A stretch of 52,008 bases of DNA from Reclinomonas americana ATCC 50394 (lineage: Eukaryota), in contig PS015352.1 of assembly GCA_048213135.1 (NCBI GenBank), forward strand, positions 1-52,008, in the 5' to 3' direction. Position 1 is the stretch's first letter, and each line of letters starts with the position of its first letter. Below the pieces are notes generated by a model that was not told the origin of the DNA, did no database searches, and worked only from the letters and a program-made list of their open reading frames with translations. Below, piece after piece: positions 15,625-52,001 of this stretch. The translations under genes were made by a program, and so were the position numbers.

Positions 15625-18600
15625 TCACACGGGACGACCTCCGCTGTCGCTGCGCGAGTGTCTGCGACCAGCCGCAACAGTAGCGACAGCCGCCGCGGCC
15701 GCCGCGGCAGCTGGACTCGGTGGCTTCACTGGCGGCTGCAGCCGGATGGGCGACGCTTGGATTCGCACAGGTGACGGCGCAGCACCATTGGTGCCATTGC
15801 TGCTGCCATTGCCGTTGCCGTTGGCGGCGGCGGCGGCGGCGGCGCGATTCGGCGACGTGTACCGCAGCGGAGTGCTCCCACTCGACGCCGGCGACTGCAT
15901 ATTGTCGGAGCTGGCGCGCGAGGCAGGAGTGCCCGCCACGATCGGCGAGGTGGCTGGATCGGAGGCGGAGGCGGTGGAGGTGGCCGACGATCGTCGAACC
16001 ACCTTGCGCACGACCTTCTTTCGCACCACACCCGACTTGGCGGTCGGCGACACAAAGTCGCCGCCGGGTGTTGGTGTCAGCGCCGGTAGTGCAGCCTCGG
16101 CCTTGCGCCGCGCCGCGTCCTCCTCCACCTTGCGTCTCTGCTCCTCCTTTAGCGCGGCAATGGCGGTCGATGCTGCCGCCGCTGCGTTCGAGTCGGTCGA
16201 CTTTTTCCGTCTCTGCATGGCCGACGCCGGCGACAGCTGCTCTAGCGGCAGACGTGGGATTGGCGGGTGCGCCGGTGACGAGGCCATGGCGCCAATGACG
16301 CCGTCCTCCTCGTCCACATCGTCGACCCACGACGTGCCACTGGCACGTCCATTCACATCAATCGCCAACTCCAGCGGGCGCAACAGCGGCCGATCGTTGG
16401 GTGCCGGCGGCAGCTGCGGTGGTTCGGGGCTGTTCGATTCACGCTCCACTGCGCCAGAGTGGTGCTTGACAACGGCCGCCACCGGTGGCTCAGCCATTGG
16501 CGGAGCACTCTCGTCAACCAAGAAATTCACCGTGGCATGATCGTCGAGTGGCGGCAGCGGCGATGACACACGACGCCGACCAGTGCCATCCAGAGCCAGG
16601 GAGGCAGACGGTGGCGACAAGTGCGTCTCGCGCGAAGGTGGCGCTGGCGGCACGTCGGGAATGTCAATCTCACTCGATGGTTCTCGCGACAGCCGACGCG
16701 GAGCACCACCACCACCATCGGAGGCGACACTTGACGTCTGCGGGAGGCTCGAGCGCTTCTCCCCAGTCGCCAGTTCGCGCGATGGCACCTCCGCCGTCTC
16801 CAATTCGTACTCCTCCTGCCCCTGCACCTCCACCACCATGTCGTCGAGCTGGATCGCGTCGCCGGTAAACTCACGCGAGTGCCGCTTCTCCTGCTCGTGT
16901 TCCTCGCGCGCCAAAGCCGTCGCCGCCGCCGCCGCCATTTCGGCAGCCGCCATCGCACGTGCCTCGGCGGTGGCTTCGGCCTTTACCGCCGCAGCCGCAT
17001 GCACCTCCACCTGCGCCTCCAGCAACACCAGTGCCGCTTGCGCGTCGGCCAGTTTCTGACGAAGGCGCACGTTTTCGTCTCGCAGTTCGGATTCAGTGCT
17101 GCGGCAATGAAGACGATGAGCGGTCGAATGGTCACACCGAGGGGAAGAAACGGGCAACGCAACAGCTCATCAATGCCACTGGTGCCGGGTGGTGGCAGTA
17201 CGCGCACGGGGAGTGGATGTACAAAGCGTCGTCGCGTCTGGTAGCCCAGCGCAGAGACGGTTCCGTATTGCGGTGGCACTTCGGCGAGAATGTGCATCGG
17301 AACAGCGACCTGTTTGCACAAAGTAGGAATGAGAGGGGGAAATGGGGAGAAGGGTTGGTGAGGGGGAAGGAGGGGGAAGGAGGGGGAAGGAGGGAAGACC
17401 AAGGAAAGGGAGAGGGGAGAGAACAATACATACCTCACGCTCCGTTTCGTTGTTGCATTCGCGCACGACACTCGAGTAGGATACAAAGTGGAAATTGTCA
17501 AACTTGCGTTCTGGCAGGCGGTCGATAAAGAGCTGTGAAGTGAAGGGAGTGAGCGCTGAGGCAGTGACGCAAGTGGGGAAGAGGGAAGAAAAGGCACCTC
17601 CAGGTCCTCCCACGGCCCTTCGCCGACGCCGACACAGACAATGGACAGACTGTGCACGGAGGAGGAGTGTAATGTGAGTGCAGGCAGGCATGCCAAAGAA
17701 CAGCATCGGAAAAATACACACGCAACGGATAGTACGATGCCTCCACAATGGCATCGAGAGTCGCCTGCTCATTCTCCACGTGACCTGACGAAAAACAAGA
17801 GGCATCGTCACGCATTGTCACGCAAAGAGACGAGGAAAAATAGAAGCACAGATTATGCGAACCGGTGGTGATGATCACCAGCACGTGGTAGTGTTCGCGC
17901 ATCTTGACCAACTCCATCGCCTTGTAAATCGGCAACGTAAACGACCGATGCCCGCCTGGTCGCACACGCGTGATCGCCTGATCCAGCAGCGCCAGCACGT
18001 CACCAACTCCCTCACACGGTGCATCCTTGTCGTTCAACGAAAACAGCGCCGTGTCCTGCATCGACAGCAAGCGGTGAGAGAAGACAGGGGCACAGAGAGA
18101 GAGAGAGAGAGAGATGGAGAGCGACGAGGAGAGCATGACGGTGAATGCGGACGAGAGAGACGGATCGGTGAGCGCAGATGGGTGAGAGAGTGAGAGAGAC
18201 AGCGAAGGAGGAGAAGGACGAGCAGGAGAGGAAAGACGAGAGAAAGAGAGAAAGTAGAAGAGAGATCGGCGATTGTGGTCGAGAGAGAGAGAGAGAGAGA
18301 CACAGATCGATGAGTGCTGACGAGAGAGATTGGGAGGGAGAGAGAGGAGGAGGAGAAAGCGGAGCAGGCGAGGAAGGACGAGAGACAGCGAAAAAGAGAG
18401 AGGGAGAGAAAACAGAGATCGGTGAGTGTAACCGGGAGAGAGACAACACAATGAGTGCAGACGAGACAAATTGAGAGGGAGAGAGAGAGGAGGGAGGAGG
18501 AGCAGGAGAGGGTGGATGAGAGAGAGAGAGGCCACACGAGAGTGAGACAGAGACAATATCGGTGGACAACGAGAGGCAAGCACGACATGAGACGACATTT

Positions 18601-19252
18601 GTGTGGACTGCGCCTCTCAACTCTTGTACGCGAATCGCCAAAGCCATACGCCGGCACGAGATTATCCGGATCAAACCTACATGACAGACACAAATGCCGA
18701 AAAAATGCAATGAGGATCAAATCACCGAACACGCCGCCATTGCAAGAGAGGCAAAAATCTACTTAACGACTGCAACACATTCCCAATCATGCGCACCACC
18801 TCCGAGCACTGCTCCTGCTGCAACCGACTCCCCGATAACCGTTTCTCACTGACGTCACTGGCGGCCGCGGGTGCACTTGAGTCATCGGCAGTGAGTGCGC
18901 CCGAGGAGAGTGAGCGCTGGTGGCGATGATGTCGCTGGTCGCGGTATCGGTTGGAGAGCGACAGAGACGAGGAGAAGTCGAAGCAGAAGATCAAGCCTAA
19001 CACATGTGTATGAGCGCGCGCGTGTGTGTGCAGTGCATGATGCGTGTCTGTGTGTGTGAAAAGAAAAAGACCGATGCAATCAGCTCCACTCTCGCGTGCA
19101 ATGAGCGCCGCCACGTCGCCGAGTGATGCACACGCGCTGATCCGCGATCTGCTCAGTCGACGGGGCACAGCGGAGGCAACAGGCGGGGAGGTCACAGGCA
19201 CAGGCGGAAATGTCGCACTCTCCGCGACTGGTGTCGATGAGCGGCACCCCAT
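15625..19252 (-). CDS. Copine/RGLG-like vWA protein with N-terminal acylation motif, coiled coil and long disordered C-terminus (8 exons)
   Basis: MGCRSS start; GLIFCFDFSSS; IGNVLQSFDPDNLVPAYGFGDSRT; YHVLVIITTG; TLDAIVEASYYPLSIVCVGVGEGPWEDLE; DRLPERKFDNFHFV; LAEVPPQY, all copine/RGLG motifs. Donors at 19071, 18767, 18621, 17862, 17726, ~17597, ~17432, 17163. Confidence 0.85.
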
Positions 19253-19392: not shown

Positions 19393-20477
19393 ATGGCCTC
19401 GTACGAGGAACAGCGTCGATTGCGTATCAAGCGCAACCGTGAGAAGCTTGAGGAGCTCACGTTGCAGTCGAGCACAGGCGATGCCGCCGCGTTGCTGTCA
19501 CCGATCGCCCCCGTCACAAAGAGGTAGCTCGCGCGCGCGCAAACAGAGTCACTTACTGTCTCTCGCGCGCTCAATGCGCGTCCACCAGTCGCAAGGTGAG
19601 CGTGTCGGGAGTGGCAAGTGGACGCGTGAAAAAGGCATCGGCGATGGCGGTCCGTCGAGCGGCTGCGTTGCCGACGCGCACCAGTCGTCGCGTGCGCGGG
19701 CAGGCTGCGGAGGACGTCGGTCCATTACCCGACGATGTCGACGACGAGCAAGAGGCGATTGTGGTGCCGCGGCGAGCAGAGAAGGAATGGGAGCAGCTGC
19801 TGACGCAGGAGGAGTACGCGCGGATTCACGGCTTGCCGGTGGGGTATGTCACCGATGGGCACTATCGCGGGTGGGTGAATGCAGAGGTGTGCGCGGCGCA
19901 TGGAATTGCCGCGACCGAGGAGGCGTGGCGTGCGCAGTTTGAGGGCGCGGGAAGGCGTGCGCCGTCGGTTAAAGGCGGAGGTGCAGGTGGGCGGCGATCG
20001 GGAGGCCTCTCGGCAAAGGAGTACTCGGCGCGACAGCTGCGCGCGAATCCGAATACGGTGTGTGACTGCTGCTGTTGATGCGCTGGTGCTAGTGGAGTGT
20101 GAGGCATTCACGACGCAAGATGCAGTACTTTTACCGGCACAACGCGCCTGGCGATCCTCCGCGCATGGGCGACTGGTCAGCGGAAGAACGCGAGCTGTTC
20201 GATCGTCTCGTGCACCAGTACGGGTGTGGCGATCTGTGGGGTCTTTTCTCGTCGCACATACCTGGACGGTGCACGCTTCTTTCTCTCTCATTCGCCTTGC
20301 TTGCTTGCTTGCTGCTCACGTCTGTCAGCTCGCAGTGTCGGCTATCAGTGCGTCAATTACTATCGGCATACGGTCATTCCGCAGTGTTTGGTCATGGATG
20401 TCGCGTATCGGTTGACCCCCGAGGGCAAGTGTGTGTGGGTCGGACGACCAGGCGAGGCCGGTGCAAAGAACGTCTGA
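19393..20477 (+). CDS. Myb/SANT-like domain protein (4 exons)
   Basis: N-terminal motif MASYEEQRRLRIKRNREKLEEL; C-terminal NPNT|YFYRHNAPG...GDWSAEERELF...WGLFSSHIPGR|VGYQCVNYYR is a Myb-like repeat. Divergent from the copine gene with ~140 bp between starts. Confidence 0.85.
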
Positions 20478-20574
20478 GACAGAGTGAAGCAGGACACATT
20501 ATCATTGCATTTTCTCTTGTGAGCAGAGCTCGTCGTCTTTCCTCTGTCAGTGGTTCACTCGTCCAGCGCGCATA

Positions 20575-21964
<1,390 letters not shown>

Positions 21965-22063: not shown

Positions 22064-24019
22064 TCAGTGTGGAGCACTGTGATTGGCGGCCGCGCGCAGC
22101 GCCTCTTGTACTCTGTCGTGGAGAGTCGACGGCGATTCGAGCAACTCTAGAACGGCATTCGGCTGCAAGTTCACCAGCGTGCTCGTGACGTCGAGCGCAT
22201 TCTGAACATGGCCACCGCATGCCGCCTCCACTAACGGGGAGAGCAGATCGTGCAAAAATGCGCGGCGCTCCTCGATGGGCGACTGAGTGAGAATCGTCCC
22301 CACATCGTTTCTTGTCGGCAACCTAGTGGGCGGCAGGCGTACAGCAGACATGATCTCGTAGCGATGGAAGAAGGCCTCGGCTTCCTCCTCGATGAAACAC
22401 CGCAACACAAACGAAGGTAGCGACTCGTCGTCATCTCCATCCTCCAAGTCACATAACGCAGGTCGGATGCGCCGCACCTCTTCAAGCTCTCTGCGCATTT
22501 GCCACTGCGGCATCCATGGGCCACCTGAGCACGTGGAGCGTGAGCGGGAAAAAAACGCATCGCATGCGCATGACACTTTTGTACTGCCGTCGCACTCGAA
22601 CCTGGCCACAAATGGAGCCCGCTGCTGCTGGAGACGGTAATCACGCTGTCTCCGTGCACAAAGCCACCCCAGATACCGTTTGCAGACTGCACCTGCACAT
22701 CGAGAATGGCCAAGCAGCGGCACGTCACGGTGCAGTACACTCGCACCGAATCCGCTGCGCGGTCACCGACAACATGTCAGCAGGCGTGCCATTGTGTATC
22801 AACCCTCCCGACGCAACTGTAGCCGACAAAGAGCAGCAGTCCGTCGTCAGAGAAGGATGCCACACAATTCGCAGACATCGTGCCTTCGATGGAGAGACGC
22901 AGCTCGCCAGTCTCGGTCGACGGCACTTCGACGTGCCCAGTCGCGTCGATGCAGAGACGCAGCTCGCCAGTCTCCGTCGATCGCACTTCGACGTGCCCAG
23001 TCGCGGTCCCCACTGCCAACCAGTCGCCGTCTCGCGACAACGCTAGTGAAATGACTTGGTGCTCTGTGTGGCACTCGTGCGCTCTCTCCAGCTGTGCATG
23101 CGACANNNNNNNNNNNNNNNNNNNNNNNNNNNNNNNNNNNNNNNNNNNNNNNNNNNNNNNNNNNNNNNNNNNNNNNNNNNNNNNNNNNNNNNNNNNNNNN
23201 NNNNNNNNNNNNNNNNNNNNNNNNNNNNNNTCTCGCGCCACTCCAGTTCCTGGTTTCTGGCGAGCACCATGAATCTAGCGTCCCTGCTCACCGTCATCGC
23301 CGTGAAAGGTGCATGTGTGAACATATTGCCAGCGGCCACCTCTCGCACACACTTGCCACTCTTCCCTTCGAAAACGCGAACCAAGTTGTCGGCGCAACAG
23401 CACACAAACCTCCTGTCGTGCGTCATTTCCAGGCCTACGATGCCGAGCATCCGGCCACCGTCATCATTCCGCCATCGACAGCACGCTTGCCACTCACCCT
23501 CTGCCAACTGCGACGCCTGCAGATCCCACAATGACACCTGAACCATGACAGGCGACGCATTGATGAACACACGACTGTAATCCAGCTGCCTGTCACTCCA
23601 CACCAACACGGTGTCATCGGTGGGAGCAAATGCCAAGCTGCAGCGGCGAGGGCCGAAGAGTCCGCCGGTGGAAGGGAACGAGCACAGTGTACGCACGCTT
23701 GATGAGCTCTCGACATTGTAAATGCGAACACATTCCATGTTGGCGACGGCGATCAACTGCACTCGCGGTCACACTCAGGATATCGTGCTCAAACACGCAA
23801 GCGGAGGTGGGAGAGGGAGCGCCTTTGACTGACCTGTCTGCCGTTGCGCGTGCTGGAAATGGCCACTGCACGGATGAGGTTTTCTGGAGACGGAGACGAG
23901 ATTCGCGTTGCGTGTGTGACCGCGTTGACCAAGGGCACAACAGGGTCGTACATTGGTCCCTGCAAACACCGCTGGCGGTGCTGTTGCCACGCAGAGAGCA
24001 CGCGCTCCCAGGCACTCAT
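22064..24019 (-). CDS. WD40-like propeller + helical LP..VLRCF motif + one degenerate MLLE (PABC) domain (paralogue B)
   Basis: MSAWERVLSAWQQH...RQ|LIAVANMECVRIY...ISLALSRDGDWLAVG...LLFVGY|TDSVRVY...LWP|GGPWM...ESLPSFVLRCFIEEEAE...FLHDLLSPLVEA...VLELLESPSTLHDRVQEAL. Introns 22817-22755 and 22601-22525 remove an in-frame stop and a frame break. Contains a gap at 23106-23230. Confidence 0.75.
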
Positions 24020-24086
24020 GGCTTGCTTCTAGGACATGCAGACAGCCTCTGATCACTCTGCGAAGTTCTTCAAGAGCTGAAACAAT

Positions 24087-26041
24087 CTATTCATTGAGGA
24101 GCTGCAGCAACTCCTGCACCTTGGAATCCAGCGCAGGCGGCGACTGAAGCAGCTCAACGATTCGGTCCGTTCCCAACTCCACCATTATCTCCGTGACCAT
24201 GACTGCACGTGCATAGTATGCATGTCGGGCAGCACAAGCCGCCTCCACCAGCGGGAAGAGGAGATCACGAAGAACATCTTTGCTGCCACAAACGGCTTGC
24301 ACCGCCTCCTGCACCATGGATTGCAGGTAGAGTGGCCTCTCCAGCAAGTCGATTAGCGAAGGCATGTCCAGCTCGAGCAGCATGCCAGTGATTTTACGGG
24401 CCCACGATTGCGAGTCGTCGTGAAACTGGGCACGAAAGGAAGCTTCCACCAGTGGATAAAGCAGCTCGCCCACAACGCGCCAACAATCAGCGCCCATAAT
24501 CACACCCAACTCCTCCACCGTAGGTCTCCGTGGTGGAGGCAGTCGCCGACTCGACGAGTCACCATACACGTGCAGCAGTGATTGTGCCTCCTCCTCCATG
24601 AAACACCGCATCACGAACAGCGGCAGTGACTCGCAGTCGACACCGGCATTGGCTTCCAAGTCTTGCAGTGCCGCCTTGGCGCACTGCACGTCTTCGAGTT
24701 CCTTGCGCATGTGCAACAGTGGCATCCACGTCGGACCTGGTGCTTGTGGTGAGCGACAGAGAAAGACAGAGGACAGACTCACATATTCTTGCGAACCGTG
24801 CCACACGTAGATGCCACTGTCATCCGCGGTGATCACGCCGTTGTCGTGCATGAAACCGCCACCAAAAGCATCAATCTTGCCTCTGTGTCCGACCATCTGC
24901 ACAGCGAGGAGAGCCAAACAGCGACCTGTGATGGTGCTGTGCACTGCCGCCATGCCACCTGCAACCGAGGAAACGAGGTCAGAGCAAGCACTTGGAAACA
25001 CGAATATGTCCCACTATGCAACTGTTGCCGGTGAACAGCAGCAGCCCATCGTCGGAGAAGGATGCAATGGGAAGTGTCGGTATCCACCCTGTGCTGGCAT
25101 CGGTTCCGCGTGCCACAACCTTCAACCTCAGCTCGCCAGTCTCTGCTGATCGCACCTCCACATGGCCTGTGGTGACACCCACAGCCAGCCAGCCGCCATC
25201 ACGCGACAATGCCAACGATGAGACGCGACCGAGTTCCACACGGCACCGACGAGTCACCAGGAGCTTCGCATGCGACAAATCGCGCCACTCCAGCACCTCG
25301 TTTCTGGCAAACACCAGGAATCTGTCGTCGCTGGTCACCATCATGGCTCGGAAGGGTACCACCTGTACCACCTGGTCGCCGTCAACAGCCTCACACACGC
25401 ACTCGCCGTTCACACCATGCAGCACGCGGACGGTATTCTCGGTCGCGTAGCACACAGACTTCGCGTCGTGCGTCACTGCCACACACAACCCTCCGTCTGT
25501 TTCAACCGTTTGTCGCCAACGACTGTGCGCTGACCACTCAGACGCCGACTCACGGCCTGGAGAATGCAAATCCCACACCGTGACCTCGCAGGGAAGTTGC
25601 AGCAAGTCCGGCAGCGGGAATGCAATCGTCAGCATGGTCTCATCAGAGGGAGCAAAAGCGAGGCCGATAGCGTGTGGAGCAGCACGCGAATCACTGGTGG
25701 GGAATGTGCACAGCACACTCATACTCACAGCATCGAAGACATGCACGCGGTTCCAGCTCGCCATGGCAATCAACTATGACAACACTGAGCACAACACACA
25801 TGCACACACAAACTCGTGGAGATGCAATGACGCAGACCTGTCTTCCGCTGTGTGTGCCTGAAATGGCCACCACACGAACGATCTCTGCGGCACTGTCGCT
25901 GTCGGAGCTTGACAAGACCTCTGTGCGCGAAGCATCTGTGACCATGTTGAGTAGTGGCACAGTGGGGCCAAACTCGGGCTCATGGAGCGACTGGCGGCGA
26001 TGTTCCTGCCACGCAGAGAACACCAACTCACGAGCACTCAT
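24087..26041 (-). CDS. WD40-like propeller + helical LP..VMRCF motif + two tandem MLLE (PABC) domains (paralogue A); exons 26041-25838, 25773-25023, 24958-24797, 24736-24087
   Basis: Same intron positions as paralogue B. WD-like VSSLALSRDGGWLAVG. The C-terminal VGELLYPLV...ARKITGMLLELD..SLIDLLE.P..L...VQEAV matches the MLLE signature KITGMLLE, followed by a second divergent copy (LLFPLVEA...VELLQSPPALDSKVQELL). Confidence 0.82.
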
Positions 26042-26226
26042 ACAGCAAGAAATGTCGGGAAAACATGCTGCGGGACAACTGACGACTTTGACGGTGCTTG
26101 GTGACACTAGATGAAGTAACCTATGTAGTTTTTCTTCTTCATTTTTGTCGACATCGCGATCGAATCGTAAAACATTTCTCTTTCTCGCTCTCCACGCCTC
26201 ACCCCTCGTGCAAACCAAAACACAAA

Positions 26227-26303
26227 CTAGTAGTGCACCGGGTGCAGGAACTGCTGCTGGTCATGCTGCTGCTGGTGGTGATAGTGATATTGTGGTTGTT
26301 GTT

Positions 26304-26340
<37 letters not shown>

Positions 26341-26750
26341 ATAAAGATACGCTTGGTGCTGCTGCTGATTCTGCTGATCGCCGTGAGTGGCACGAGCGCG
26401 TTCCTGTGCGGCAGCAATCTGCGCTGCGCGTGCAGCGTGGCTGCCAGGATACTGCTGCTGCTGCTGCTGCTGGTGCTGCGGAGGCATGGGCGGCCGCCGC
26501 TGCTGTTGCTGTTGCTGCTGCTGCTGTTGTCCCGGCTGCTGCTGACGCTGCGAGGCCTGACGAGCGGCAGCAATGGCGGCCATGTAATCATCGGCGACGG
26601 CTGCCTGCGGTGGAGGCGGCGATGGCGGTGACGGCGCACGCGGTCTTCTTTGACGCTGCTGCTGCTGCTGCTGCTGCGGTGGTGGAGGTGGTGGCGGTGG
26701 CGGTGGTGCCGACGAAGGAGGGCGATCATTCAGCGAGCAGCAGATGCGCC
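26227..26750 (-). CDS. 3' exon of a polyP/polyQ-rich protein (5' part beyond gap)
   Basis: Open frame from the gap: RICCSLNDRPPSSAPPPP...QQQ...DDYMAAIAAARQ...FLHPVHY*. Confidence 0.5.
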
Positions 26751-26770
26751 NNNNNNNNNNNNNNNNNNNN

Positions 26771-27150
26771 TCTCCCCATCTTTTTCCCCCAATTCTCGCC
26801 CTTGTGCCTTCTACATGGAAGCTACTTCCGTCATTGCATCGATTTCACCATTCCCCTCTTGCATTGCCCAAATTCTCCCTTTCACTTCAAGAATGTGTTT
26901 CCACATTCTATTCTCTCCCCATCTCTCTTTCTCTTGTATTCAAATACCCCGCCCTTGTGCCTTCTACATTGAAGCCATTTCCTTCATTGCATCGATTTCA
27001 CCATTGCCCTCTTGTATTGCCCAAATTCTTTCTTTCACTTCAAGAATATGTTTCCACATTCTATTCTCTCCCCATCTCCTTTCCCCAATTCTCGCCCTTG
27101 TGCCCTTCCATCTCCCTTCCCTAATTCTCGCCCTTTCATCTCCATTCCCC
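26771..27150. repeat. ~153-bp tandem repeat, two copies plus a partial
   Basis: cgcccttgtgccttc(tacat) recurs near 26797, 26950 and 27093. Confidence 0.8.
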
Positions 27151-28069
27151 AATTCTCACCCGTTCCTTTCTTATTTTCCTCGTTCCACTCCAAGAATACA
27201 CTCTCGCACCTCTCCATCCCCACTCCTCCATCAATCACTGATCGATTTGACCTCTCCTTTCACCCTCTCTCTGCGATTCATGTGAATTCGGAATTGACCA
27301 ATCAAATGTCTCTCCTCGTATCTCCCCACCAGTATCTCAATTCTTGATTCCCCACCGTATCGCCCTTCTCCCCTTCTCCTTGTACATGATACTTGCATCA
27401 AATGACCTGCTCCACCTCTCCTCCGCCCTCCACAATTTTCTCAATCTTCCATCGGAATTGCATCAGTCAATCCATTGCAGCTCCTCACCGGCATCTTAAT
27501 TCCACATTCCCTTTGGCAGAATCCTTCTTCCCCTCTCCGCCCATGTGATCTCATCCTTTGTTTCCAAATCTGACCTCATTCCCGCCCTGTTATTCCATCG
27601 ATGGCCATCATTTCAGCTGAATCCGCATCGTTGCTTGCTGCATGCGTCTGCGTGTGAGTGTTTCGCATGCCGTGCATCTTCTCCACTCTCTCCATCGACT
27701 CCATCGTGCAATTCATCTCACTCACACCTTCCACCCATCCCCCTGCCGGATTTCTCGGCTGCATTTCATTCGGTGCCATGTCGGATTGCTTCGATTTCCA
27801 CCGCTCACCGCCCGTTTGTGCTTCCTTGCTTCCCCTTTCTCCAATTCCATTTCTTGCAGAGTTCTTTTTCTCCCCCAATTCCCGCCCCCCTCTTCATGCA
27901 TCAACGGCAGCCGGCTGTCCCACCCGCCACCACGCACCCACACCNNNNNNNNNNNNNNNNNNNNACTCTCTCTCTCTCTTCACCTCCCATCGTCTTTCTT
28001 CCTCTCCCTTCCTCCTTTCCTCTCCCTTCCTTCCTTCCTCTCTCACACTCTTCCTCTCCTCCTCCTCTC

Positions 28070-34312: not shown

Positions 34313-34608
34313 TGTTGGACGGTTGAGGGGGACACACTGGATGGGTATACTCTGTCGTCGTTACTCCCGATGGCCAGCACATCATGAGTGGGAGTGCGGA
34401 TAAATCGATCCGAGTGTGGTCCGCGCCGCGTGGCCCGGCAGGACAAGAGGTTGCGGCCGCACGATCAGCTGTGCTGGCCATCAACGAGCTGCTTGCCGAA
34501 GAAGATGACTGTGACTGGATTCTCGTCGATGTTGTGCTGCGGTGTTTTGTGTTGGAGGATGCAGAGGTGATTGAACGCCGTGCGCCTGGATGGTGCTGGA
34601 CGGAGTGA
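34313..34608 (+). pseudogene. Last exon of a decayed WD40 gene of the array family (one blade plus a divergent C-terminal motif)
   Basis: GHTGWVYSVVVTPDGQHIMSGSADKSIRVWSAPRG...EVAAARSAV...DVVLRCFVLEDAEV. There is an extra base / in-frame TGA just before GH. Only WD-like scraps are visible upstream (32460-33217; donor gtgagc at 33218). Confidence 0.65.
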
Positions 34609-35481: not shown

Positions 35482-35513
<32 letters not shown>

Positions 35514-35599
35514 CTCTCACCCACTCACGCACTCTCACCCACTCACACACTCTCTCTCTCTCTCACACACACGCGCGCACACACAAATTCACACGGAGA

Positions 35600-36515
35600 A
35601 TGACAGCAAAGGTGGGAATGTATGCACTTTGCGTGGTTGGTGTCTGCGCGTGCATTCGTGTGCTTGTGCATCGTGTGCAGTTGTTGTTTGTGTTGTTATG
35701 CTTGTCTTTGATTGCTGCTGCGTGCGTCTCACTGCGAGTGGCACAGATCATTCAGAGTCCCGCTTCGGTGCGGTCCGTCGCCGTCACTCCCGATTGCCAG
35801 CACATTGTTGGTGGGTGCATGGACAGCACTGTTCGAATGTGGTCACTGGCGAGTGGCAAAGAGGTGCGACGGCTGGAGGGACACACTGCGTGGTTGCAGT
35901 CTGTCGCCGTCACCCCTGATGGCCTTCACATCGTGAGTGGANNNNNNNNNNNNNNNNNNNNATAATGCGGGTATGGTTGCTGGCGAGTGGGGAGGAGGTA
36001 CTGCGGTTGGAGGGGCACATTGGCTTGGCGCTCTCTACACTCCCGATGGTCGACACATTGTGAGTGGCGGTGGGGACGAGACAGTGCGAATATTGTCACT
36101 GGTAAGTGGGATGGAAGTGCGACGACTAGAAGGACACACTGGAAGGGTGTGCGCCGTCGCTGTTACTCCCGACGGTCAGCATATTGTGAGTGGGAGCGAG
36201 GACAGCACCGTGCGGATGTGGTCTTTGGCGAGTGGCGAGGAAGTACGACAGTTGGAGCGACACACTGGATGGGTGTCGTCTGTGGCCGTCTCTCCCGATG
36301 GTCTCCACATTGTGAGTGCGGGTGGCATTGACGGGACGATACGAGTGTGGTCCACGCCGCGCGGCCTTGCTCACCTCGAACTCGACGCCGCGCGCTCGGC
36401 CATGCAAGCCGTGCAGGAGATGCAGGAGGATGAAGTAGATTCACGATGCCTTCCCGAGCTGGTTCTGCGCTGTTTCATCGTCGAAGATGCCGAGGTCGTC
36501 CTTTTTCGGTGCTGA
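35600..36515 (+). pseudogene. WD40 array copy 1 (exons 35600-35611, 35747-36515); gap plus frame-breaking deletion near 36030
   Basis: MTAK|IIQSPASVRSVAVTPD...; after the gap the blade EGHIGL...TPDG lacks the VxSVAV strand and changes frame. The tail CLPELVLRCFIVEDAEVVLFRC* is intact. Confidence 0.6.
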
Positions 36516-36965
36516 GGTGGTGAGTCGGAGGGAGGGAAGGTGGCTGCTGGTGACTGGGAGTTGTTTTTTCGTGTCTTGTGCGGGGGTGCGGGTGATCATG
36601 CGGGATGCAGGTGGGGGTACAGAGGAAGACAGAGGAAGAGAGTGAGATTGTAGTTGATGGTGAAGAATCGTTCCCCCGTGTTTGTTGCCCTGTCATGTAC
36701 ACGTGAATGTGATTGTGCGGGCGTGAAGCATGTCTCCCTCTGTTTACGTGTCTCTTTCTCACCTCCATTTGTGTGCAAGTGCGATGAATCACTTGGGAGT
36801 CTCTTGCGTTTTTTTGTCTTGTTGTGAAGTCTGTTGTGCGTGCATCTTTCGTCGCCCATGTACGTGCCTCAGGAGAGCGAGTCACCGACGATTGTCTCCT
36901 CGTTTGCACACTTCCTTGGCGCCACTACTCTGCTTNNNNNNNNNNNNNNNNNNNNATGTCTTGTC

Positions 36966-37014
<49 letters not shown>

Positions 37015-38652
37015 CCTTACAGAGTCTCTATCTTTCTCCACCATCTCTCTCCTTTGTGCGCTCATCTGCCTCCCCAGTCATCCACCCCTCCTTGCCGCAC
37101 ACGCTCAAGGCCGAGCATGCTTCTCTACTCATGTTGCACCGACTGCCATCCTGCCAGTTCATCATGGTGAGCTTCTAGATACCGAAGTGTGTGAGATGGC
37201 CCGACTGCATTCTGACTCTTCTCTCTCTCTATCTCTATCACAGAACCGGCCCTCGGCTGTCCTCTTGCCCAAACGCGTGTTGGTATCAGGTGCTGATTGG
37301 TGTGTTCGCCACGTGTGACAGAGCAGATTTCTCTCCTCTTCCTCCATGCCTTTGCTCACAGCACACCGGCATGCAGAGACCATGGAAAGCATGTCGTGAC
37401 GATGACAGACGTGCTGTGCATTGCCCATTGCCGGCTGTCACCTCGCTCAGTCGGCTCCACACCTGAATCCCAGCAATGCACGATGCAAGTGTTGGCCTTG
37501 TTCGTCTTGATTTCTCTTTCCTCCTTCCACTCACCTCACTCATGCAGGCCGCACATGCTATGGAGAGCGTGGCTGGGTGGATGTACATATGCGCGCGTGC
37601 CGTGCTGTGCGATGGTGGCCTGGTTGGTGGATCGTATTAAATCCCGACTTGCAAGTCTGAGTGGAGTGTGCGCCGTTGCCGCCGTCTCTGTCGAGTGACG
37701 ATGGTGTTGGCCATGGAAGACTGCAGACGCGTGCTCGGCAATCTACTCATGGGTTGTCGTGTTTCCCGATGGGTGACCTGGTCGGTGGATCGTTCTCGAT
37801 CCCGGTTGGCAAGTCGGAGCGGATCGATGGTATGCGCTTCTTGGTTGCTGCTGTCGCCGCCAAGTAATGATGGTGATGGCCATGGGAGACTGCAGACTCG
37901 TGTCAGGCTAGCAACACGTGGTGCGTGCGTGTTCTGTATCTGCGTTGAGGAGCATTGGTGAGACTTGGAGATTGACTGACTCAGTTCTGTGTGACAGGCG
38001 TGCTGGCAAGTGACTGGCATGCGAAGACACGTGGTTCCGTGTCACACAGTGCATGCATGAGACGATTCACCGACCGAATGTGAGTGTGATTGAAGTCACG
38101 AGGCATTGATTGTGATCTGGGTGAAGGGGAGGCGAGTCTCACGTCACAGCTGCCTGTTCCGTCGCTGTGCTGCTGTACTGGTCGTTCCTCTCTTGTTCCT
38201 TGTGCCATCATCGTGCCCTCATCAACCTCGCTGTGGGCCGATCCAAGGAGGCTTGAGGTTTCGAAGACTCGGCGCTCATTGGATTCTCGGGTGCAGGGCC
38301 ACAGCTGCATATCCAAGCAACCCGACATGCCAGTCCTTGGTGACAGAGTATGCAGGTCAGTTGAAAGAGAGTGTCGCTGGACAGCAGCACGGTGCAGTGG
38401 AGCGTCACCTTGAGTCACCACCACCACCTTGCTTGTCCATTCTGTCGATTTCGCATCGACGAGTCCCATGTCGGTCTTCGAGAGCCCACACGCATCAACG
38501 AAGCCACATCGTTCACACACCACCGCATGATATGTGGCTTGCTGGCTGCAGCCTGGCGAGGGATGCGGGACGTCTCAGAGCAAGACGGGAGAAAAAGGCG
38601 GGAAACAGTGACAATCCCGAGCGAGCAACTCACACACACACACACACGGAGA

Positions 38653-39842
38653 ATGGCAACAAAGGTGTGGATGTATGCGCACTTTCGCGCGGTTGATGTC
38701 TGTGCGTACATTCGTGTGCGTGTGCATGTGTGCGGTTGTTGTTGTGCGTGTCTTCGAATGTTGCTGTGCGTGTCTTCGAATGTTGATGTGCGTGTGCGCC
38801 TCACTGCGAGTGCTTGATACAGATCATTCAGAATATCGCTTCAGTGCGATCCGTCGCCGTCACTCCCGATGGCAAGCACATTGTCAGTGGTAGCTATGAC
38901 AAAACAGTTCGAGTGTGGTCGCTGGCGAGTGGCAAGGAGGTGCGGCGGCTTGAGGGGCACGCTGATGTGGTGTTTTCTGTCGCCGTCACCCCTGAAGGCC
39001 AGCACGTTGTGAGTGGGAGCGGAGACTCTACCGTGCGTGTGTGGTCGCTGGCGAGTGGGGAGGAGGTGCGACGGCTGGTGGGACACACTGGATGGGTGTG
39101 TTGTGTCGTCGTAACCCCCGATGGTCAGCACATTGTAAGTGGGGGTGAAGACAACACAGTGCGAGTGTGGTCTCTGGCAAGTGGGGAAGAGCTGCGACGG
39201 CTGGAGGGACACGCCGACAAGGTGTGGTCAGTCGCCGTCACTCCTGATGGTCAACACATTGTCAGTGGCGGTGGAGACAACACCGTGCGAGTGTGGTTGC
39301 TGGCGAGTGGGGTAGAAGTGCGACGGTTGGAAGGACACACTAGATGGGTGATTTCAGTCGCTGTTACTCCAGACGGTCAGCATATCGTGAGTGGGAGCGG
39401 GGACTGCACCGTGCGAGTGTGGTCAGTTACGAGCGGAGAAGAGGTGAGACGGTTGGAGAGACACACTGAATATGTACATTCTGTCGCCGTCTCTCCCGAC
39501 GGTCAGCATATTGTGAGTGGGAGCGAGGACAGCACCGTGCGGGTATGGTCTCTGGCGAGTGGCGAGGAAGTACGACGGTTGGATGGACACACTGGATGGG
39601 TTTCGTCCGTGGCCGTCTCTCGCGATGGTCTCCACATTGTGAGTGCGGGTGGCTATGATGAGACGGTGCGAGTGTGGTCCACGCCGCGTGGCCTCGCTCG
39701 CTTCGAACTCGACGCCGCGCGCTCGGCCATGCGGGCTGTGCAGGAGATGCAGGATGAGGAAGAAGATTCACGATGCCTTCCCGAGCTGGTTCTGCGTTGT
39801 TTCATCGTCGAAGATGCCGAGGTCGTCCTTTTCCGGTGCTGA
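38653..39842 (+). CDS. WD40 array copy 2, intact, 7 blades + C-terminal motif (exons 38653-38664, 38823-39842)
   Basis: MATK, intron gtgtgg...atacag, then IIQNIASVRSVAVTPDG with 7 repeats and the conserved tail. Confidence 0.9.
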
Positions 39843-42014
39843 GAAGGTGAGTCGAAGAGAGGGAGAGCGGTGGCTGCTGGTTATTGTGAGTTGTTTTTCG
39901 TGTCTTGTGCGGGGGTGCGGGTGATCATGCGGGTGCAGATTGAAGAAGAGAGGATGACAGACGAGAGGAGAGAAGTCGACGTGGATGATGCAGAACTGTT
40001 CTCTGTGCTTGTTGCCCTATCATGTGATTGAGAGAGAGGTAGTGAAGCACGTCTCTCTTTCTGCATGCGTGCCTCTTTCTCACCTCCATTTTGTGTGTGC
40101 AAGTGCGATGAATCAATTGGTAGTCTGTTGTGCCTCTGTGATGTCTGTTGTGCGTGCATCTTCCGTCGCTGATATACGTGCCTCATGAGAGCAAGTCGCC
40201 GATGATTATTCCCTCGCGTCTCGTTTTGCGCACCTCCTTGGCATCACTGCTCTGCTTCCCATTGTGCCTGTGCGCCGTGGACATTCTCCTTCCGACTCTG
40301 CAGGATGCATGTCATTCCGCTCTCGAGCCCTCCTTCTCTGTCCCTTGTAGAGTCTCTATCTCTCTCTTTCTTTCTCCACCGTCTTCCTCCTTTGTGCGCT
40401 CATCTGACTCCCCAGCCATGTGCCCCATCCTTTCTGCACACGCTAGAGGCCGAGCATGCTTCCCTACTGCCAGTTCATAATGGTGAGCTTCTCGATACCG
40501 AAAGTATGTGAGGTTACATACCTGCATGCTGACTCTGCTCTCTCTCTCCTTTGAAGGGTGGGGTTGGTGCAGAAGCATCCCTCGGCTTGCCTCTTGACAA
40601 AACCGCGTGTTGGTATCAGGTGCTGATAGGTGTTCGTCATTGAGACAGAGCAGATATCTTTCTCCTTCCTCCATTCTTTTGCTCACATTGCACCGACATG
40701 CAGACACCTTAGGGGCAGGTCCCCCTCGTTGTTCCGTAATGATTGCAGACGTGCTGTGCATCGCCCGCTGCCGGCTGTCACCTCACTCACTCGGCTCCAC
40801 ACCTGAATCCCACCAATGCACGATGCAGGTGTGTGGACTTGTTCGGCGTGATTTTTCTCTCCTCCTTCCCTCCCACTCACCTTATTCATGCAAGTCGTGC
40901 AGGTCATGGAGAGCGTGGCGTGGGTGGGTGAATACATGCGTACCGTGATGTGCGATTGTGGCCTGGTTGGTGGATCGTTTTCAATCCCGGCTGGCAAGTC
41001 GGAGCGGATCGATGATGTGCGCACCTTGGCTGCCGCCGTCTCTGTCGAGTAATGATGCCAGTGGCCGTGGGAGACAGCAGACGCGTGCTCGGCAATCTAC
41101 TCATGGTGGACACATGCGTGTCGTGTTTCCCGATGGGTGGCCTGGTCGGTGGATCGTTTTCGATCCCGGTTGGCAAGTCAGAGCGGATCGATGATGTGCG
41201 CTTCTTGGTTGCTGCTATCGCCGCCAAGTAATGATGGTGATGGCCATGAGAGACTGCAGACGCGCGCGCGGCCTGGTGCGTACGTGTTCTGCATCTGCGT
41301 TGAGGAGTAAGTTGGTGAGACTTGGAGATTTGACTAACTCAATTCTGTGTGACAGGCGTGCTGGCAAGTGACTCGTCACTGGCATGCGAAGACACGTGGT
41401 TCCGTGCCACACAGTGCATGCGTGAGATGATTCACCGACCGACTGTGAGTGTGATTGAAGGGACGAGGCATTGACTGTGACTTGGGTGAGAGGAGGCGAG
41501 CCTCACGACGCAGCTGCCTCGTCCATCGCTGTGCTCTCTTGTTCCTTGTGGCTCTCTTTCTTCGTCATGCCCTCGTCAACCTCGCTGTGGGCCGATCAAA
41601 GGAGGCTTGAGGTTTCGAAAACTCGGTGCTCATTGGATTCTCGGGTGTGCCGTGGCATCAGCACACCAGGGCCACAGCTGCGTATCCAAGCAGCCCGACA
41701 CGCCAGTCCTCGTTGAGAGAGAATGCAGGTCAGTTGAAAGAGAGTGTCGCTGGACAGCAGCAAGGTGCAGTGGAGCGACAACCTCGTGTCATCACCACCA
41801 CCTTGCATGTCCATCCTGCCGATTTCTCATCGACCTGTCCCATGTCGGTCGTCGAAAGTTCACACGCATCAAAGAAGCCATACTGCTGTATGCTGTGTGG
41901 GGTACTGGCTGCAGCCTGGCGAGGGATGGGCGACGCCTAAGAGCAAGGCGGGAGAAGAAAGGCGGGAAACAGTGACAATCCCGCAGCGAGCAATCACACT
42001 CACAGACACGGAGA

Positions 42015-43324
42015 ATGGCAACAAAGGTGTGAATGTGTGCGCACTTTTGCGTGTTTGGTGTCTGTACGTGCATTCGTGTGCTTGTGCATGTGTGCGGTTG
42101 CTGTTTGTGCATGTGCGTGTCTTCGAATGTCGCTGCTGTGTGTGCGTCTCACCGCGAATGGATCGGCACAGATCATTCAAAGTCTCGATGTGGTGAGGTC
42201 CGTCGCCGTCACTCCCGATGGCAACCACATTGTTGGTGGATGTGACGACGGCACCATCCGAGTGTGGTCTCTGGCGAGTGGGGAAGAAGAGCGACGACTG
42301 GGTGGACACTCTAGAACGGTGTGGTCTGTCGCCGTCACCCCTGATAATCAGCACATCGTGAGTGGAAGTGGAGACCGTACCGTACGTGTCTGGTCTTTGG
42401 CAAGTGGAGAAGAAGTGCGACGGTTTGAGGGACACACCAATGCGGTGTTGTCTGTCGCCGTCGCCTTCGATGGCCAGCACATTGTCAGCGGCGGCTATGA
42501 CTGCACAATACGAGTGTGGTCTCTGGCGAGTGGGGAAGAGGTGCGACGGATGGAAGGACACGCTGCAAGGGTGTTGTCTGTCGCTGTCACCCCTGATAGT
42601 GAGCACATTGTTAGCGGGAGCGGAGACAGCACCGTGCGAGTGTGGTTGCTGGCGAGCGGGGAGGAAGTGCGACGGCTGAGGGGCACACTGGCTTGGTGTA
42701 CTCTGTTGCCGTCACTTACGATGGTCAGCACATCGTGAGTGGCAGTCACGATAACACGGTGAGAGTGTGGTCTCTGGCGAGTGGGGAGGAAGTGCGACGG
42801 CTGGAGGGACACACTGGATGGGTGTATTGTGTCGCCGTCACCCCTGATGGTCAGCACATCGTAAGCGGGGGTGGAGACCGCACCCTGCGAGTATGGTCGC
42901 TGATGAGTGGTGACCAAGTGCGACGTTTCGAGGGACACACTTCATGCGTGTCGTCTGTCACCGTCTCTCTCGATGGTCAGCACATTGTTAGTGCGGGTGC
43001 GGAGACAGCACCATTCAGGTGTGGTCTCTGGCGAGTGGCGAGGAGATGCGACGGTTGGAGGGACACACGCACCTGGTGATATCAGTTGCCGTCTCTCCCG
43101 ATGGTCTGCACATTGTGAGTGCCGGTTGTCAAGACCATAGCGTGCGAGTGTGGTCCACGTCGCGTGGCCTTGCTCGCTTCGAACTCGACGCTGCGCGGTC
43201 GGCCATGCTGGCTTTGCTGGAGATGCAGGAGGACGAGGAGGAAGTAGATTCACGATGCCTTCCCGAGCTGGTTCTGCGCTGCTTCATCGCCGAGGATGCC
43301 GAGGTCGTCCTTTTCCGGTGCTGA
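42015..43324 (+). pseudogene. WD40 array copy 3, 8 blades, two single-base deletions (~42678, ~42999)
   Basis: cggctgaggggcac where cggctggaggggcac is expected; gcgggtgcggagac where gcgggtggcggagac is expected. ORF is split into 42037-42738, 42642-43079 and 43019-43324. Could be sequencing error. Confidence 0.7.
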
Positions 43325-45418
43325 GAAGGTGAGTCGGAGGGAGGGAGAGTGGTGGCTGCTGGTGATTGTGAGTTGTTTCCGTGTCGTGCGAGGGAGAGTG
43401 GGTGATCACGCGGGATGCAGGTGGGGAAGAGAGGATGACAGAGGAGAGAGATCGCGATCGAGGTATCGCTGTTGATGGTGGTGAATTCTTCTCCCGTGTT
43501 TGTTGCCCTGTACATGTGAATGAGAGTGAGTGGGCGAGGAGCATGTCTCCCTCTGTTGGCGTGTCTCTTTCTCACCTCTATTTGTGTGTGCCAGCGCGAT
43601 GAATCACGTGGAAATCTGGTGTGTCAATTTGTATCGTTGTGATATTTATTGTGCGTGCTTCTTCCGTCGTTCGTGTATGCGCCTCTGGAGGGCGAGTCGC
43701 CGATGATTATTCCCTCGCGTCTTGTTTTGCACACTTCCTTGGCGCCACCACCCTGCTTCCCATTGTGCGCATACATGCACGCCGCGGGCATTTTCATCCC
43801 AGCTTCGCAGGATGCATGTCATTCCGGTCATCTCTATCGATATCTGTCCCTTGTAGAGTCTCTTTCTCTCTCTCTTTCTCCACCGTCTCCCTCCTTCGTG
43901 TGCTCATTTGCCTCCCCAGTCATCCACCCCATCCTTCCCGCACAAGCTCGATCCGAGTATCTGCTCAAGATGCGCCGGCTGCGATTTAGCCATCGTGTTG
44001 GGCCGTCCATTATGGTGAGCATCCCGACTCCCAAGTGTGTGGGATGGCATGACTGCATGCTGACTCTACTTTCTCTCTCTTTCTCTCCCTTGCAGGATGG
44101 ATGTGTGTGCAGAAGCTTCCCTCGCCTTGCCTCTTGCCCAAATGCGTGTTGGCATCAGGTGCTGATCGGTGGTGGGGAGCCGAGTGAGTGGGTGTAAGCC
44201 GGCCATGGGCAATGCACAGAACACCGTTCATTGTCACGGCCAACGGCAAGCACATATTTCCATGGTGTCTGCATGTCGGTGCAATGTGAGCAAAGCATGG
44301 AGGGAGGAGAGACATCTGCTCTGTCTCACTGACGAACTCTCGCATCCCACCATGCACAAAGCAGGTGTGTGGCCTTGTTCGTCGTGATCTCTCTTTCCTT
44401 CTTCCCTCCACTCACCTCATTCATGCAGGTCGTGCAGGCCATGGAGAGCGTGGCTGGGTGGGTGTACACCTGCGTGCCATGATGTGCGACATGGTGGCCT
44501 GGTCGGTGGATCGTTTCAATCCCGCCTGGCAGGTCGGAACGGATAGATTATGTGCGCGCCTTGGCTGTTGCTGTTTCTGCCGAGTGATGATGCTGGTGGC
44601 CATGGGGGACTTTAGACGCGTGCGAGGCCAGCAACACATGGTGCTTGCGTGTTCTGCGTCTGCGTTTAAAAAAAAGAAGTCGGTGAGACTTGGAGACAGA
44701 CTGACTCAATTCTGTGTGTGATCTGAACACAGGCGTGCTGGCAAGTGACTGGCATGCGAAAACACGTGGTTCCGTGCCACACAGTACATGCGTGAGACGT
44801 TTCGCCGAACGAATGTGAGTGTGATTGAAGGCGAAGCATTGACTGTGACTTGGGTGAGAGGAGGCGAGCCTCACGACGCAGCTGCCTCGTCCATCGCTGT
44901 GCTAGCTGCTGTACTGGTCGCTCCTCTCCTGTCCCTGTGACTCTCCTTCTTCGTCGTGCAGTCATGACTTGCACCTCGTCAGCTTCGCTGTGGGCCGATC
45001 CAAGGAGGCTTGAGGTTTCGAAGACTCGGTGCTCCATGGATTCTCGGGTGTGCCGTGGCATCAGCACAACAGGGGCACAGCTGCATGTCTAAGCAGACCG
45101 ACATGCCAGTCCTCGTTGACAGAGAATGCTGGTCAGTCGAAAGAGAGTGTCGCTGGACAGCAGCGCGATGCAGTGGAGCGCCATCTTGTGTCGCCAGCAT
45201 GTCCATTCTGCCGATTTCTCATCGACGAGTCACATGTTGGTCTTCGAAAGCCCGCACGCATCAAAGAAGCCACATTGCTCTCATACTGCTTTATGTTGTG
45301 TGGCGTACTGGCTGCAGCCTGGCGAGGGATGGACGACGTCTCAGAGCAAGGCGGGAGAAGAAAGGCGGGAAACAGTGACAATCCCGAGCGAGCAAATCAC
45401 ACACACAACGCACGGAGA

Positions 45419-46587
45419 ATGACAACCAAGGTGTGAATGTATGCGCACTTTTGCGTGGTTAGTGTCTGTGCATGCATTCATGTGCTTGTGCATGTGTGCG
45501 GTTGTTGTTTGTGTGTTGTGTTTGTCTTTGATTGCTGCTGCGTGAGTCTCACCACGAGTGATCAACACAGGTCGTTCAGAGTCTCGCTGTGGTGCAGTCG
45601 GTCGCCGTCACTCCCGATGGCAAGCACATTGTTGGTGGGTGCGAGGACAAGACCATCCGAGTGTGGTCTCTGGCGAATGGGGAAGAAGTGCGACGGCTGG
45701 AGGGACACTCTGGAAGGGTGTGGTCTGTCGCCATCACCCCAGATGGCCAACATATCGTGAGTGGAAGTGGAGACTGTACCGTGCGGATGTGGTCGCTGGC
45801 GAGTGGGGAAGTAGAGCGACGGCTGGTTGGACACGCCGACACTTTGACGTCTGTCGTCGTGACCCCCGATGGTCAGCACATTATCAGTGGGAGCTGGGAC
45901 TGCACAATACGAGTGTGGTCTCTGGCGAGTGGGGAGGAGGTGCGACGGTTGGAAGGAGGCGCTGGAGAGGTATACTCTGTTGCCGTCGCTCCCGATGGTA
46001 ACCACACTGCGACTGGGAGCGGGGACTGCACCGTGCGGGTGTGGTCGCTGGCGAATGGGACGGTGCGACAGCTGGCAGGTCACACTGGATGGGTGTATTG
46101 TGTCGCCGTCACCCCTGATGGTCAGCACATCGTGAGTGGGGGTGGAGACATCACCGTGCGGGTGTGGTCGCTGATGAGTGGAGACCAAGTGCGACGATTG
46201 GAGGGACACACTGGTACGGTGTGGTCTGTCGCCGTCACTCCAGATGGTCGGCGCATTGTTAGCGGGAGCGGAGACAGCACAATTCGGGTGTGGTCTCTGG
46301 AGAGTGGGGAGGAAGTACGACGGTTGGAGGGACATGACGGATGGGTGTCGTGTGTTGCTGTCTCTCCCGATGGTCAGCACATTGTCAGTGCGGGTGGCCA
46401 CGACAAGACCGTGAGAGTGTGGTCTACACCGCGTGGCCTCGCTCGTCTCGAACTCGACGCCGCGCGGTCGGCCATGCATGCCGTGCAGGAGATGCAGGAG
46501 GAAGAGGTAGACTCACGATGCCTTCCCGAGCTGGTTCTGCGCTGCTTTATCGTCGAGGATGCCGAGGTCGTCCTTTTCCGGTGCTGA
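45419..46587 (+). CDS. WD40 array copy 4, intact, 7 blades + C-terminal motif (exons 45419-45430, 45571-46587)
   Basis: MTTK|VVQSLAVVQSVAVTPDG..., open to the TGA. Confidence 0.9.
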
Positions 46588-47270
46588 GTCGGTGAGCCGA
46601 AGGGAGGGAGGGTTGCTGCTGGTGATTGTGAGTTTGTTTCCATGTCTTGCGAGGGAGAGCTGGTGATTATGCGGGTGCAGGTGGGGGAAGAGAGGACAAC
46701 AGAGGAGGGGAGAGAAGTCGACGTGGATGATGCAGCATTGTTCTCTGTGCTTGTTGCCCTATCATGTGAGTGAGGGAGAGGTAGTGAAGCATGTCTCTTG
46801 CTGTTTACGTGACTCTTTCTCACCTCAGTGTGTGTGTGTGCGAGCGAGATGAATCAATTGGAGTCTGTGATTTCATTTCCCCTCGTTGTGATGTCTGTTG
46901 TGCGTGCATCTTTCGCCGCTGCTATACGTGCCTCATGAGAGCGAGTCACCGTTGTCTGTTTCCCTCGCGTCTTGTTTGCACACTTTCTTGGCACCGCCAT
47001 ACTCTGCTTCCCATTGTGCACGTGCGACTGCGAAGAATGCCTGTCTTTCAGCTCTCTTTTTTTCTGCCTCCTGCAGAGTCTATCTCTTTCTCCGCCATCT
47101 CCCTGCCTTTGTGCGCTCATCTGATTCCCCAGTAATCCGCCCCTCCTTGTCGCACGCTCGAGGTCGAGCTGCTGGTCCGCTCACCGTGTTCCGATTGCCA
47201 TCCTGCCAGTCCATCATGGTGAGCATGTCGATGCCGAAGTGTGTGAGGTGGCCTGACTGCATGCTGACTC

Positions 47271-47308
<38 letters not shown>

Positions 47309-51958: not shown

Positions 51959-51999
<41 letters not shown>

Positions 52000-52001
52000 G
52001 A

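Follow-up and report, generated by a model that had tools for sequence, protein, structure and literature searches.

MLLE domains are usually treated as the docking domains of poly(A)-binding proteins (PABPs); besides these, PMC11572963 names just UBR5 and fungal Rrm4 as carriers. For PABPC1, the residues that touch the PABP-interacting motif 2 (PAM2) peptides of eRF3 are named in PMC2854688. In Rrm4, according to PMC11572963, the MLLE3 domain reads PAM2-like, not PAM2, peptides and does so through a different interface, which provides a precedent for altered MLLE specificity. Here we describe two neighboring genes, paralogues A and B, from Reclinomonas americana ATCC 50394 (assembly GCA_048213135.1, contig PS015352.1, forward strand), whose predicted proteins join a divergent WD40-type beta-propeller, a short helical motif and C-terminal MLLE domains. 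The whole analyzed stretch of 52,008 nucleotides (nt) is called the window; it is about 55% G+C and contains numerous assembly gaps.

We suggest that A and B are co-directional duplicates belonging to a lineage-specific WD40-plus-motif family, to which MLLE domains have been appended, and that A would work as an adaptor coupling PAM2-type ligands to the partners of that family. We give this reading about an even chance. The underlying WD40-motif-MLLE architecture, with tandem MLLE domains in A, had been proposed in a first-pass annotation of the same DNA; sequence profiles, predicted folds and the gene models now support it.

Results

MLLE domains of A and B

By sequence profile, all three C-terminal domains are MLLE domains. 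Scored as separate segments, A MLLE1, A MLLE2 and the B domain reach 55.5, 29.8 and 28.9 bits, respectively, in the Pfam MLLE scan (PF00658), and all three lie above the curated cut-off of 27 bits; the B domain is borderline, with 26.8 bits when its whole open reading frame (ORF) is scanned. The A ORF 24087-25013 as a whole matches the family at 9.2e-22 (77.3 bits) in two stretches. The description of these domains in the first-pass annotation holds in each part: the exact KITGMLLE of A lies within a full MLLE-like helical context, a second, degenerate copy is present in A (identical to MLLE1 at 23 of 56 residues), and B keeps just one degenerate copy, with VTSTLVN for ITGMLLE, MLLE1 being absent.

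Against PDB sequences, 15 of the 16 matches to A exon 4 are MLLE domains of PABP or UBR5/HYD, the best being the PABPC1 MLLE (7.8e-6); in the remaining one, 7b9k, no single stretch passes by itself. An AlphaFold2 (AF2) model of the exon was made from a 25-row alignment that includes MLLE proteins from the protein library searched below. From about residue 85 onward its predicted local distance difference test (pLDDT) values exceed 90, and its Foldseek matches of ranks 1-25 are all MLLE (probability 0.99-1.00; no row at E <= 1e-3). VIA-align, which was run independently of Foldseek, superposes A MLLE1 on the UBR5 MLLE (3ntw) with Z 11.6 and a root-mean-square deviation of 1.1 Å over 61 residues (39% identity), and also finds Rrm4 MLLE2 (7pze, Z 10.7) and Leishmania PABP1 (6h7a, Z 9.7). 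For A MLLE2 (model residues 155-215) the listed rows are generic helical subdomains (Z <= 7.7), and what supports its assignment is thus the profile score, together with the way it aligns to the second domain in tandem-MLLE proteins.

The B domain is identical to A MLLE2 at 26 of 54 residues and to A MLLE1 at 21 of 53. The exon-4 alignment pairs it with A MLLE2, with the entire MLLE1 segment missing from B. A quick tree built from 192 MLLE domains places A MLLE2 and the B domain as sisters (Shimodaira-Hasegawa-like approximate likelihood ratio test, SH-aLRT, 91) and puts all three A/B domains inside one seven-row group (SH-aLRT 93, below the tool's mark of 95). A history of internal duplication and subsequent loss of MLLE1 in B would be compatible with these sequence relationships, though unproven.

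Divergent propeller and post-propeller motif

The N-terminal part of A and B is predicted to be a WD40-type propeller fold, divergent in sequence. The WD40 repeat profile PF00400 gives 14.8 bits in A and 14.3 bits in B and does not reach its cut-off of 27, and the propeller families of Pfam match at E values from 7e-5 to 1e-3, all under their own cut-offs. A profile built from exon 2 of both genes has 30 matches in PDB, every one a WD40 protein (best SMU1, 4.1e-6), and its hhalign comparison with a canonical WD40 ORF of the window yields a probability of 87%. The AF2 model of exon 2, which covers 250 of the approximately 330 propeller residues, is all-beta with 21 strands (pLDDT 72.9). Foldseek finds at least 500 matches to it at E <= 1e-3, with WDR61/SKI8, G-beta, WDR5 and designed seven-blade propellers at the top (E 3e-9 to 5e-8). 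The closure of the ring and its blade number are presumed. No RNA-recognition motif (RRM) was found by Pfam at E <= 1 in the exon-bearing ORFs of A or B.

Directly after the last blade comes a motif of about 60 residues with the pattern W.P..., an acidic stretch and LP..V[LM]RCF[IM].E[DE]A[EQ]. It is common to eight ORFs of the window, and ten columns are invariant over the eight copies. In the AF2 model the motif of A consists of two helices (pLDDT 53-68). With the A/B motif profile, hmmsearch gives E values of 1.4e-7 to 7.5e-7 for five plus-strand WD40 ORFs, and 8.7e-4 for one more. In the five strongly matching WD40 genes the motif directly follows the last WD repeat and the ORF ends about 10 residues past it. 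The canonical plus-strand WD40 genes have seven textbook repeats (about 250 bits, Pfam). A tandem array at 35500-52008 (+) has at least five units, each about 3.3 kb long, with 75-84% nucleotide identity. Every unit holds one canonical seven-repeat WD40 gene with the A/B motif at its C-terminus, and no other Pfam domain was found in these units.

Because the motif is common to the plus-strand WD40 genes, we regard A and B as divergent members of the local WD40-plus-motif family that also carry MLLE. They share the WD40 propeller and the post-propeller motif with the canonical genes of the window, but their blades are very divergent, and the canonical genes are without MLLE. The motif marks a lineage-specific, tandemly expanded and uncharacterized WD40 family. 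None of its eight copies matches the F-box, the SOCS-box or any other Pfam family at E <= 10, short motifs being hard for profiles. Against PDB profiles nothing better than 0.13 was obtained (designed helical proteins), VIA-align returns generic helical hairpins alone (Z <= 6.4), and a word-index protein search with the motif (residues 285-351 of ORF 38787-39839) confirmed none of 124 candidates. A, B and three canonical family members were searched by regular expression for the WDxR / [WY]D[IFVLM][RK] (DWD) box, with no match.

Locus and gene models

The gene models were built from the reverse-strand reading by testing GT-AG combinations for open frames. A and B are tandem, co-directional minus-strand genes of four exons each (Table 1); the start codon of A begins at 26041, and the stop codon of B ends at 22064. 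In A the introns measure 64, 64 and 42 nt; those of B are 77, 63 and 77 nt long. Every intron is GT-AG, and the three intron positions and phases match between the genes. The spliced frame of A has 594 codons and zero stops. With 594 open codons over four exons and common intron positions and phases, A and B are not chance ORFs. The ORF 24087-25013 of A runs uninterrupted from the last propeller blade (exon 3) through the 42-nt intron, which keeps the frame, and on through the motif and the two MLLE domains. Since blade, motif and MLLE domains share this ORF, the propeller-MLLE fusion in A is independent of the splice model.

Table 1. Positions of the genes, exons and protein regions of paralogues A and B, and of further motif copies, in the window
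Feature	Position	Strand	Basis or detail
Paralogue A, whole gene	24087..26041	-	ATG 26041, stop 24087-24089, 594 aa
A exons 1-4	25838-26041, 25023-25773, 24779-24958, 24087-24736	-	GT-AG splice model
A divergent WD40-type beta-propeller, predicted (end of exon 1, exon 2, exon 3; introns in span)	24779..25900	-	profile and fold
A helical motif directly after last WD blade	24555..24734	-	8-copy alignment; profile search
A MLLE1, canonical	24285..24527	-	Pfam MLLE 55.5 bits; KITGMLLE at 24372-24395
A MLLE2, degenerate, VTEIMVE instead of ITGMLLE	24090..24284	-	Pfam MLLE 29.8 bits; pLDDT >90
Paralogue B, whole gene	22064..24019	-	ATG 24019, stop 22064-22066
B exons 1-4	23834-24019, 22818-23756, 22602-22754, 22064-22524	-	exon 2 includes N gap 23106-23230
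B, same post-propeller motif	22349..22522	-	hmmsearch 1.2e-49 to A/B profile
B single degenerate MLLE, VTSTLVN instead of ITGMLLE	22067..22285	-	Pfam MLLE 28.9 bits as segment
Six further motif copies, C-termini of WD40 ORFs	34423-34605 (weaker), 36342-36512, 39669-39839, 43151-43321, 46414-46584, 49743-49913	+	hmmsearch

On the two sides of the gap of N letters in B exon 2 the reading frames differ, as is expected because the gap length is arbitrary, and the A-B alignment across it leaves just 1-2 residues unaccounted for. The A and B proteins are about 47% identical. Over 503 aligned codons the proportions of nonsynonymous and synonymous differences (pN and pS) are 0.342 and 0.644, and the corresponding distances (dN 0.46, dS 1.47) give a ratio of about 0.31, which is rough because dS is close to saturation. 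The pair has been under purifying selection since the duplication. The introns of A and B have 31-44 identical positions in global alignment and the exons are 58.5% identical; the introns are too short for a clear contrast, and this comparison is not used as evidence. In B a 60-nt unit occurs twice at 93% identity (22886-23005, -), duplicating 20 residues of a propeller blade about 100 nt from the N gap; it may be an assembly artefact, or damage to a blade.

From the stop of A to the ATG of B there are 67 nt (24020-24086, -), and a CAG-repeat, polyglutamine-rich ORF at 26230-26844 (-) ends 186 nt before the ATG of A (spacer 26042-26229). Such close spacing may mean that genes here share a primary transcript, or that the locus is very compact. 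On the opposite strand of the A/B locus, no ORF has a Pfam match. Long simple repeats, (GT)n, (CT)n and CAG/CAA, lie on both sides of A and B (20600-21700 and 26200-27300), together with more N gaps.

PAM2-contact residues

Seventeen PABPC1 positions in contact with PAM2, as named in PMC2854688, were scored: Q560, G563, E564, F567, G579, K580, T582, M584, L585, L586, E587, I588, K606, E609, A610, V613 and L614. They were mapped through an alignment to PABPC1 and the 25-row exon-4 alignment. A MLLE1 is identical to PABPC1 at ten of them (G563, E564, K580, T582, M584, L585, L586, E587, E609 and A610), and a further five carry conservative changes (F567Y, I588L, K606M, V613A and L614V). A MLLE2 is identical at six, with G563R, K580M and A610L among its changes; in addition the central glycine of its motif, position 583 and thus outside the 17, is replaced by glutamate (G583E). 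The B domain is identical at four, and its changes include F567S, K580D, M584T and E587N.

On these residues A MLLE1 appears to be a credible PAM2-type reader, and docking of such peptides is plausible. Canonical PAM2 binding by A MLLE2 or by the B MLLE is unlikely, judged by the loss of contacts (Gly563, Lys580 and Met584; in B also Phe567 and Glu587). The recruitment of PAM2-containing factors, which the first-pass annotation had suggested for both proteins, therefore remains plausible for A MLLE1, with its ten contacts and whole KITGMLLE, and is not upheld for A MLLE2 and B. A loose PAM2 pattern has seven matches in the window, in ORFs without an identified gene or Pfam family, several of them serine/leucine/proline-rich.

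Comparison with known MLLE proteins

A MLLE1 resembles the MLLE of PABPC1/Pab1 in its KITGMLLE, in the order of its helices, in ten of the 17 PAM2 contacts and in its PF00658 score of 55.5 bits. It differs in standing after a WD40 propeller and a novel motif, with no RRM found, in an insertion of eight residues between helices 2 and 3, and in the degenerate second MLLE directly after it. Where members of the PABP family have four N-terminal RRMs before the MLLE, the N-terminal part of A and B is a predicted beta-propeller. With the HECT ligase UBR5/HYD/EDD, which provides the best structural match to A MLLE1, A and B have in common an MLLE within a non-RNA-binding protein; unlike UBR5, they lack HECT, UBR and UBA domains, and their MLLE is C-terminal and, in A, tandem. 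Rrm4 of Ustilago maydis, with three MLLE domains, two of them divergent according to PMC11572963, is similar in having tandem MLLE domains, some of which depart from the canonical signature. It has RRMs and no propeller, however, and its ligand-binding MLLE3 is of a seven-helix type not seen in A or B.

We also searched 1.84 billion representative proteins exhaustively with A exon 4 (phmmer, E <= 1e-3). This returned 75 proteins. The top one has an E value of 2.0e-18 and 39% identity, and each protein matches on the MLLE part except P0019, a low-complexity hit with FAZ1 repeats and no MLLE. Pfam scans found MLLE in 74 of the 75, with at least two copies in 66 and one in eight, a share of multi-MLLE proteins that is biased because a two-domain query favors multi-domain matches. 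The partners of MLLE in this set include an F-box with a beta-propeller, the PHAX RNA-binding domain, a seven-transmembrane (7TM) receptor, MIF4G with RRMs, and single RRMs. Tandem MLLE domains, and the MLLE as a portable module, are common in this large library. The view of the MLLE as a mark of PABP, UBR5 and Rrm4, from which the first-pass annotation had started, is hence too narrow, as 74 of 75 relatives carry it with varied partners.

The nearest relatives of the A C-terminus are multi-MLLE proteins of the library (for example P0002 with six MLLE domains, P0003 and P0005), which are 39-47% identical to it over the MLLE part and likewise have tandem MLLE domains attached to unrelated modules. 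In contrast to A and B, none of the 75 relatives has a WD40 domain by Pfam, including 14 re-scanned at E <= 0.05, and none aligns to the motif apart from the low-complexity P0019. The WD40-MLLE architecture is real and was not seen elsewhere in the proteins searched. Literature searches found no paper describing a WD40-MLLE fusion; InterPro architectures were not queried. ESM Atlas gave no usable match to exon 4.

Three library proteins have combinations that we did not find described in the literature searched. P0003 has four MLLE domains followed by an F-box and a beta-propeller, the domain order being reversed relative to A; P0005 has a PHAX RNA-binding domain followed by four MLLE domains; and P0016 has a rhodopsin-type 7TM receptor followed by four MLLE domains.

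Other features of the window

At 1-456 (+) there is a protein-kinase C-lobe fragment (Pkinase, 4.6e-8), just upstream of a WD40 ORF of 525 residues (494-2071), and 1-2071 (+) may belong to a single kinase-WD40 gene that is truncated at the edge of the window. The family-motif profile has no match to this WD40 ORF at E <= 10. A Copine-domain ORF at 17501-18616 (-, 4.4e-11), for which ESM Atlas returns generic Copine clusters alone (<=0.79), and a Myb-like DNA-binding ORF at 20093-20572 (+, 3.2e-6) are the sole other recognizable genes between the WD40 clusters. Rfam has no match over the whole window.

Discussion

Several observations weigh against the adaptor reading. Two of the contacts changed in A MLLE1, Q560R and G579R, are at positions that touch the PAM2 backbone, and the domain carries its eight-residue insertion between helices 2 and 3. 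A six-frame scan of the window for the strict PAM2 motif had no match. The PF00400 scores stay below the cut-off, the dN/dS estimate is rough, and the blade duplication in B may have damaged a blade if it is not an artefact. The gene models are predictions from the DNA. Orthologues of A and B were sought by word-index search among longer proteins, where exon 4 retrieved only a Mytilus PABPC (2.5e-9) and exon 2 none of 2331 candidates; in metagenome contigs the A/B exon-4 alignment had 114 pattern matches, of which 0 were confirmed.

Part of this evidence can be turned into another explanation, in which the MLLE domains are real but are not PAM2 readers: they would bind a lineage-specific PAM2-like ligand or pack on their own motif or propeller, with no tie to PABP partners or mRNA fate. 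The six and four contacts of A MLLE2 and the B MLLE would fit it, as would the insertion and the two backbone-contact changes of A MLLE1, the retention of the degenerate copy alone in B while the pair overall shows purifying selection, and the binding of PAM2-like peptides by Rrm4 MLLE3 via another interface, as described in PMC11572963. However, A MLLE1 keeps the full KITGMLLE, G563, E564, an aromatic residue at 567, E609 and A610, residues that make up both hydrophobic pockets, and its model superposes at 1.1 Å on a UBR5 MLLE with PAM2 bound. We hold this explanation to be rather unlikely. Nothing in the analysis connects A or B to mRNA control, a link that the first-pass annotation had suggested, and there is no strict PAM2 match in the window.

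A role of A and B as substrate receptors in a ubiquitin ligase is quite improbable. By analogy to UBR5, the propeller and motif would insert into a cullin-type adaptor and the MLLE would deliver PAM2 proteins for ubiquitination. Such a role could be suggested by UBR5 being the best structural match to A MLLE1 and by the union of four MLLE domains, an F-box and a beta-propeller in the library protein P0003. The LP of the motif, with the hydrophobic residues after it, is also loosely like the start of an F-box, a likeness for which no test was positive. Against this stand the failure of all eight motif copies to match the F-box, the SOCS-box or any other Pfam family at E <= 10, or anything in PDB, the lack of a WDxR/DWD box in A and B, and the fact that no ligase component is seen in the window.

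That the locus is non-functional as modeled, consisting of decaying duplicates or of exons not joined in vivo, is very improbable: the purely predicted gene models with no orthologue found in the searches, the N gap and 60-nt duplication of B and the mere 67 nt between A's stop and B's start would agree with it, but 594 stop-free codons over four exons with conserved intron positions and phases, a dN/dS that, though rough, is about 0.3 for proteins about 47% identical, and the last blade and MLLE domains lying in one ORF in A argue against it.

Returning to the adaptor reading, we propose the following scheme. A MLLE1 would dock short linear motifs of the PAM2 type in the groove around its KITGMLLE helix, by analogy to the MLLE domains of PABPC1 and UBR5, while the propeller and the motif of A would engage a second partner. 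A would in this way bring PAM2-bearing proteins to the partners of the WD40 family, or it would compete with PABP for them. A MLLE2 and the B MLLE most likely have an altered specificity or a supporting structural role, as is the case for the two divergent domains, MLLE1 and MLLE2, in Ustilago Rrm4, and B would then be a diverged variant without canonical PAM2 specificity.

A more far-reaching proposal, which we consider unlikely, is that a lineage-specific, tandemly expanded WD40 family with an undescribed C-terminal two-helix motif has captured the MLLE and given rise to a class of PAM2 readers that are neither PABPs nor ligases. Such proteins would either rival PABP in binding the factors of termination and deadenylation or pass these factors on to the partners of the WD40 family, and the degenerate MLLE2-type copy, the sole one in B, would have come to read a new peptide code.

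If the propeller-MLLE protein is a PAM2 reader, it would be a further route by which PAM2-type motifs can be read outside poly(A) tails. As a natural pair, A and B allow a canonical MLLE to be compared with a degenerate one on a shared scaffold.

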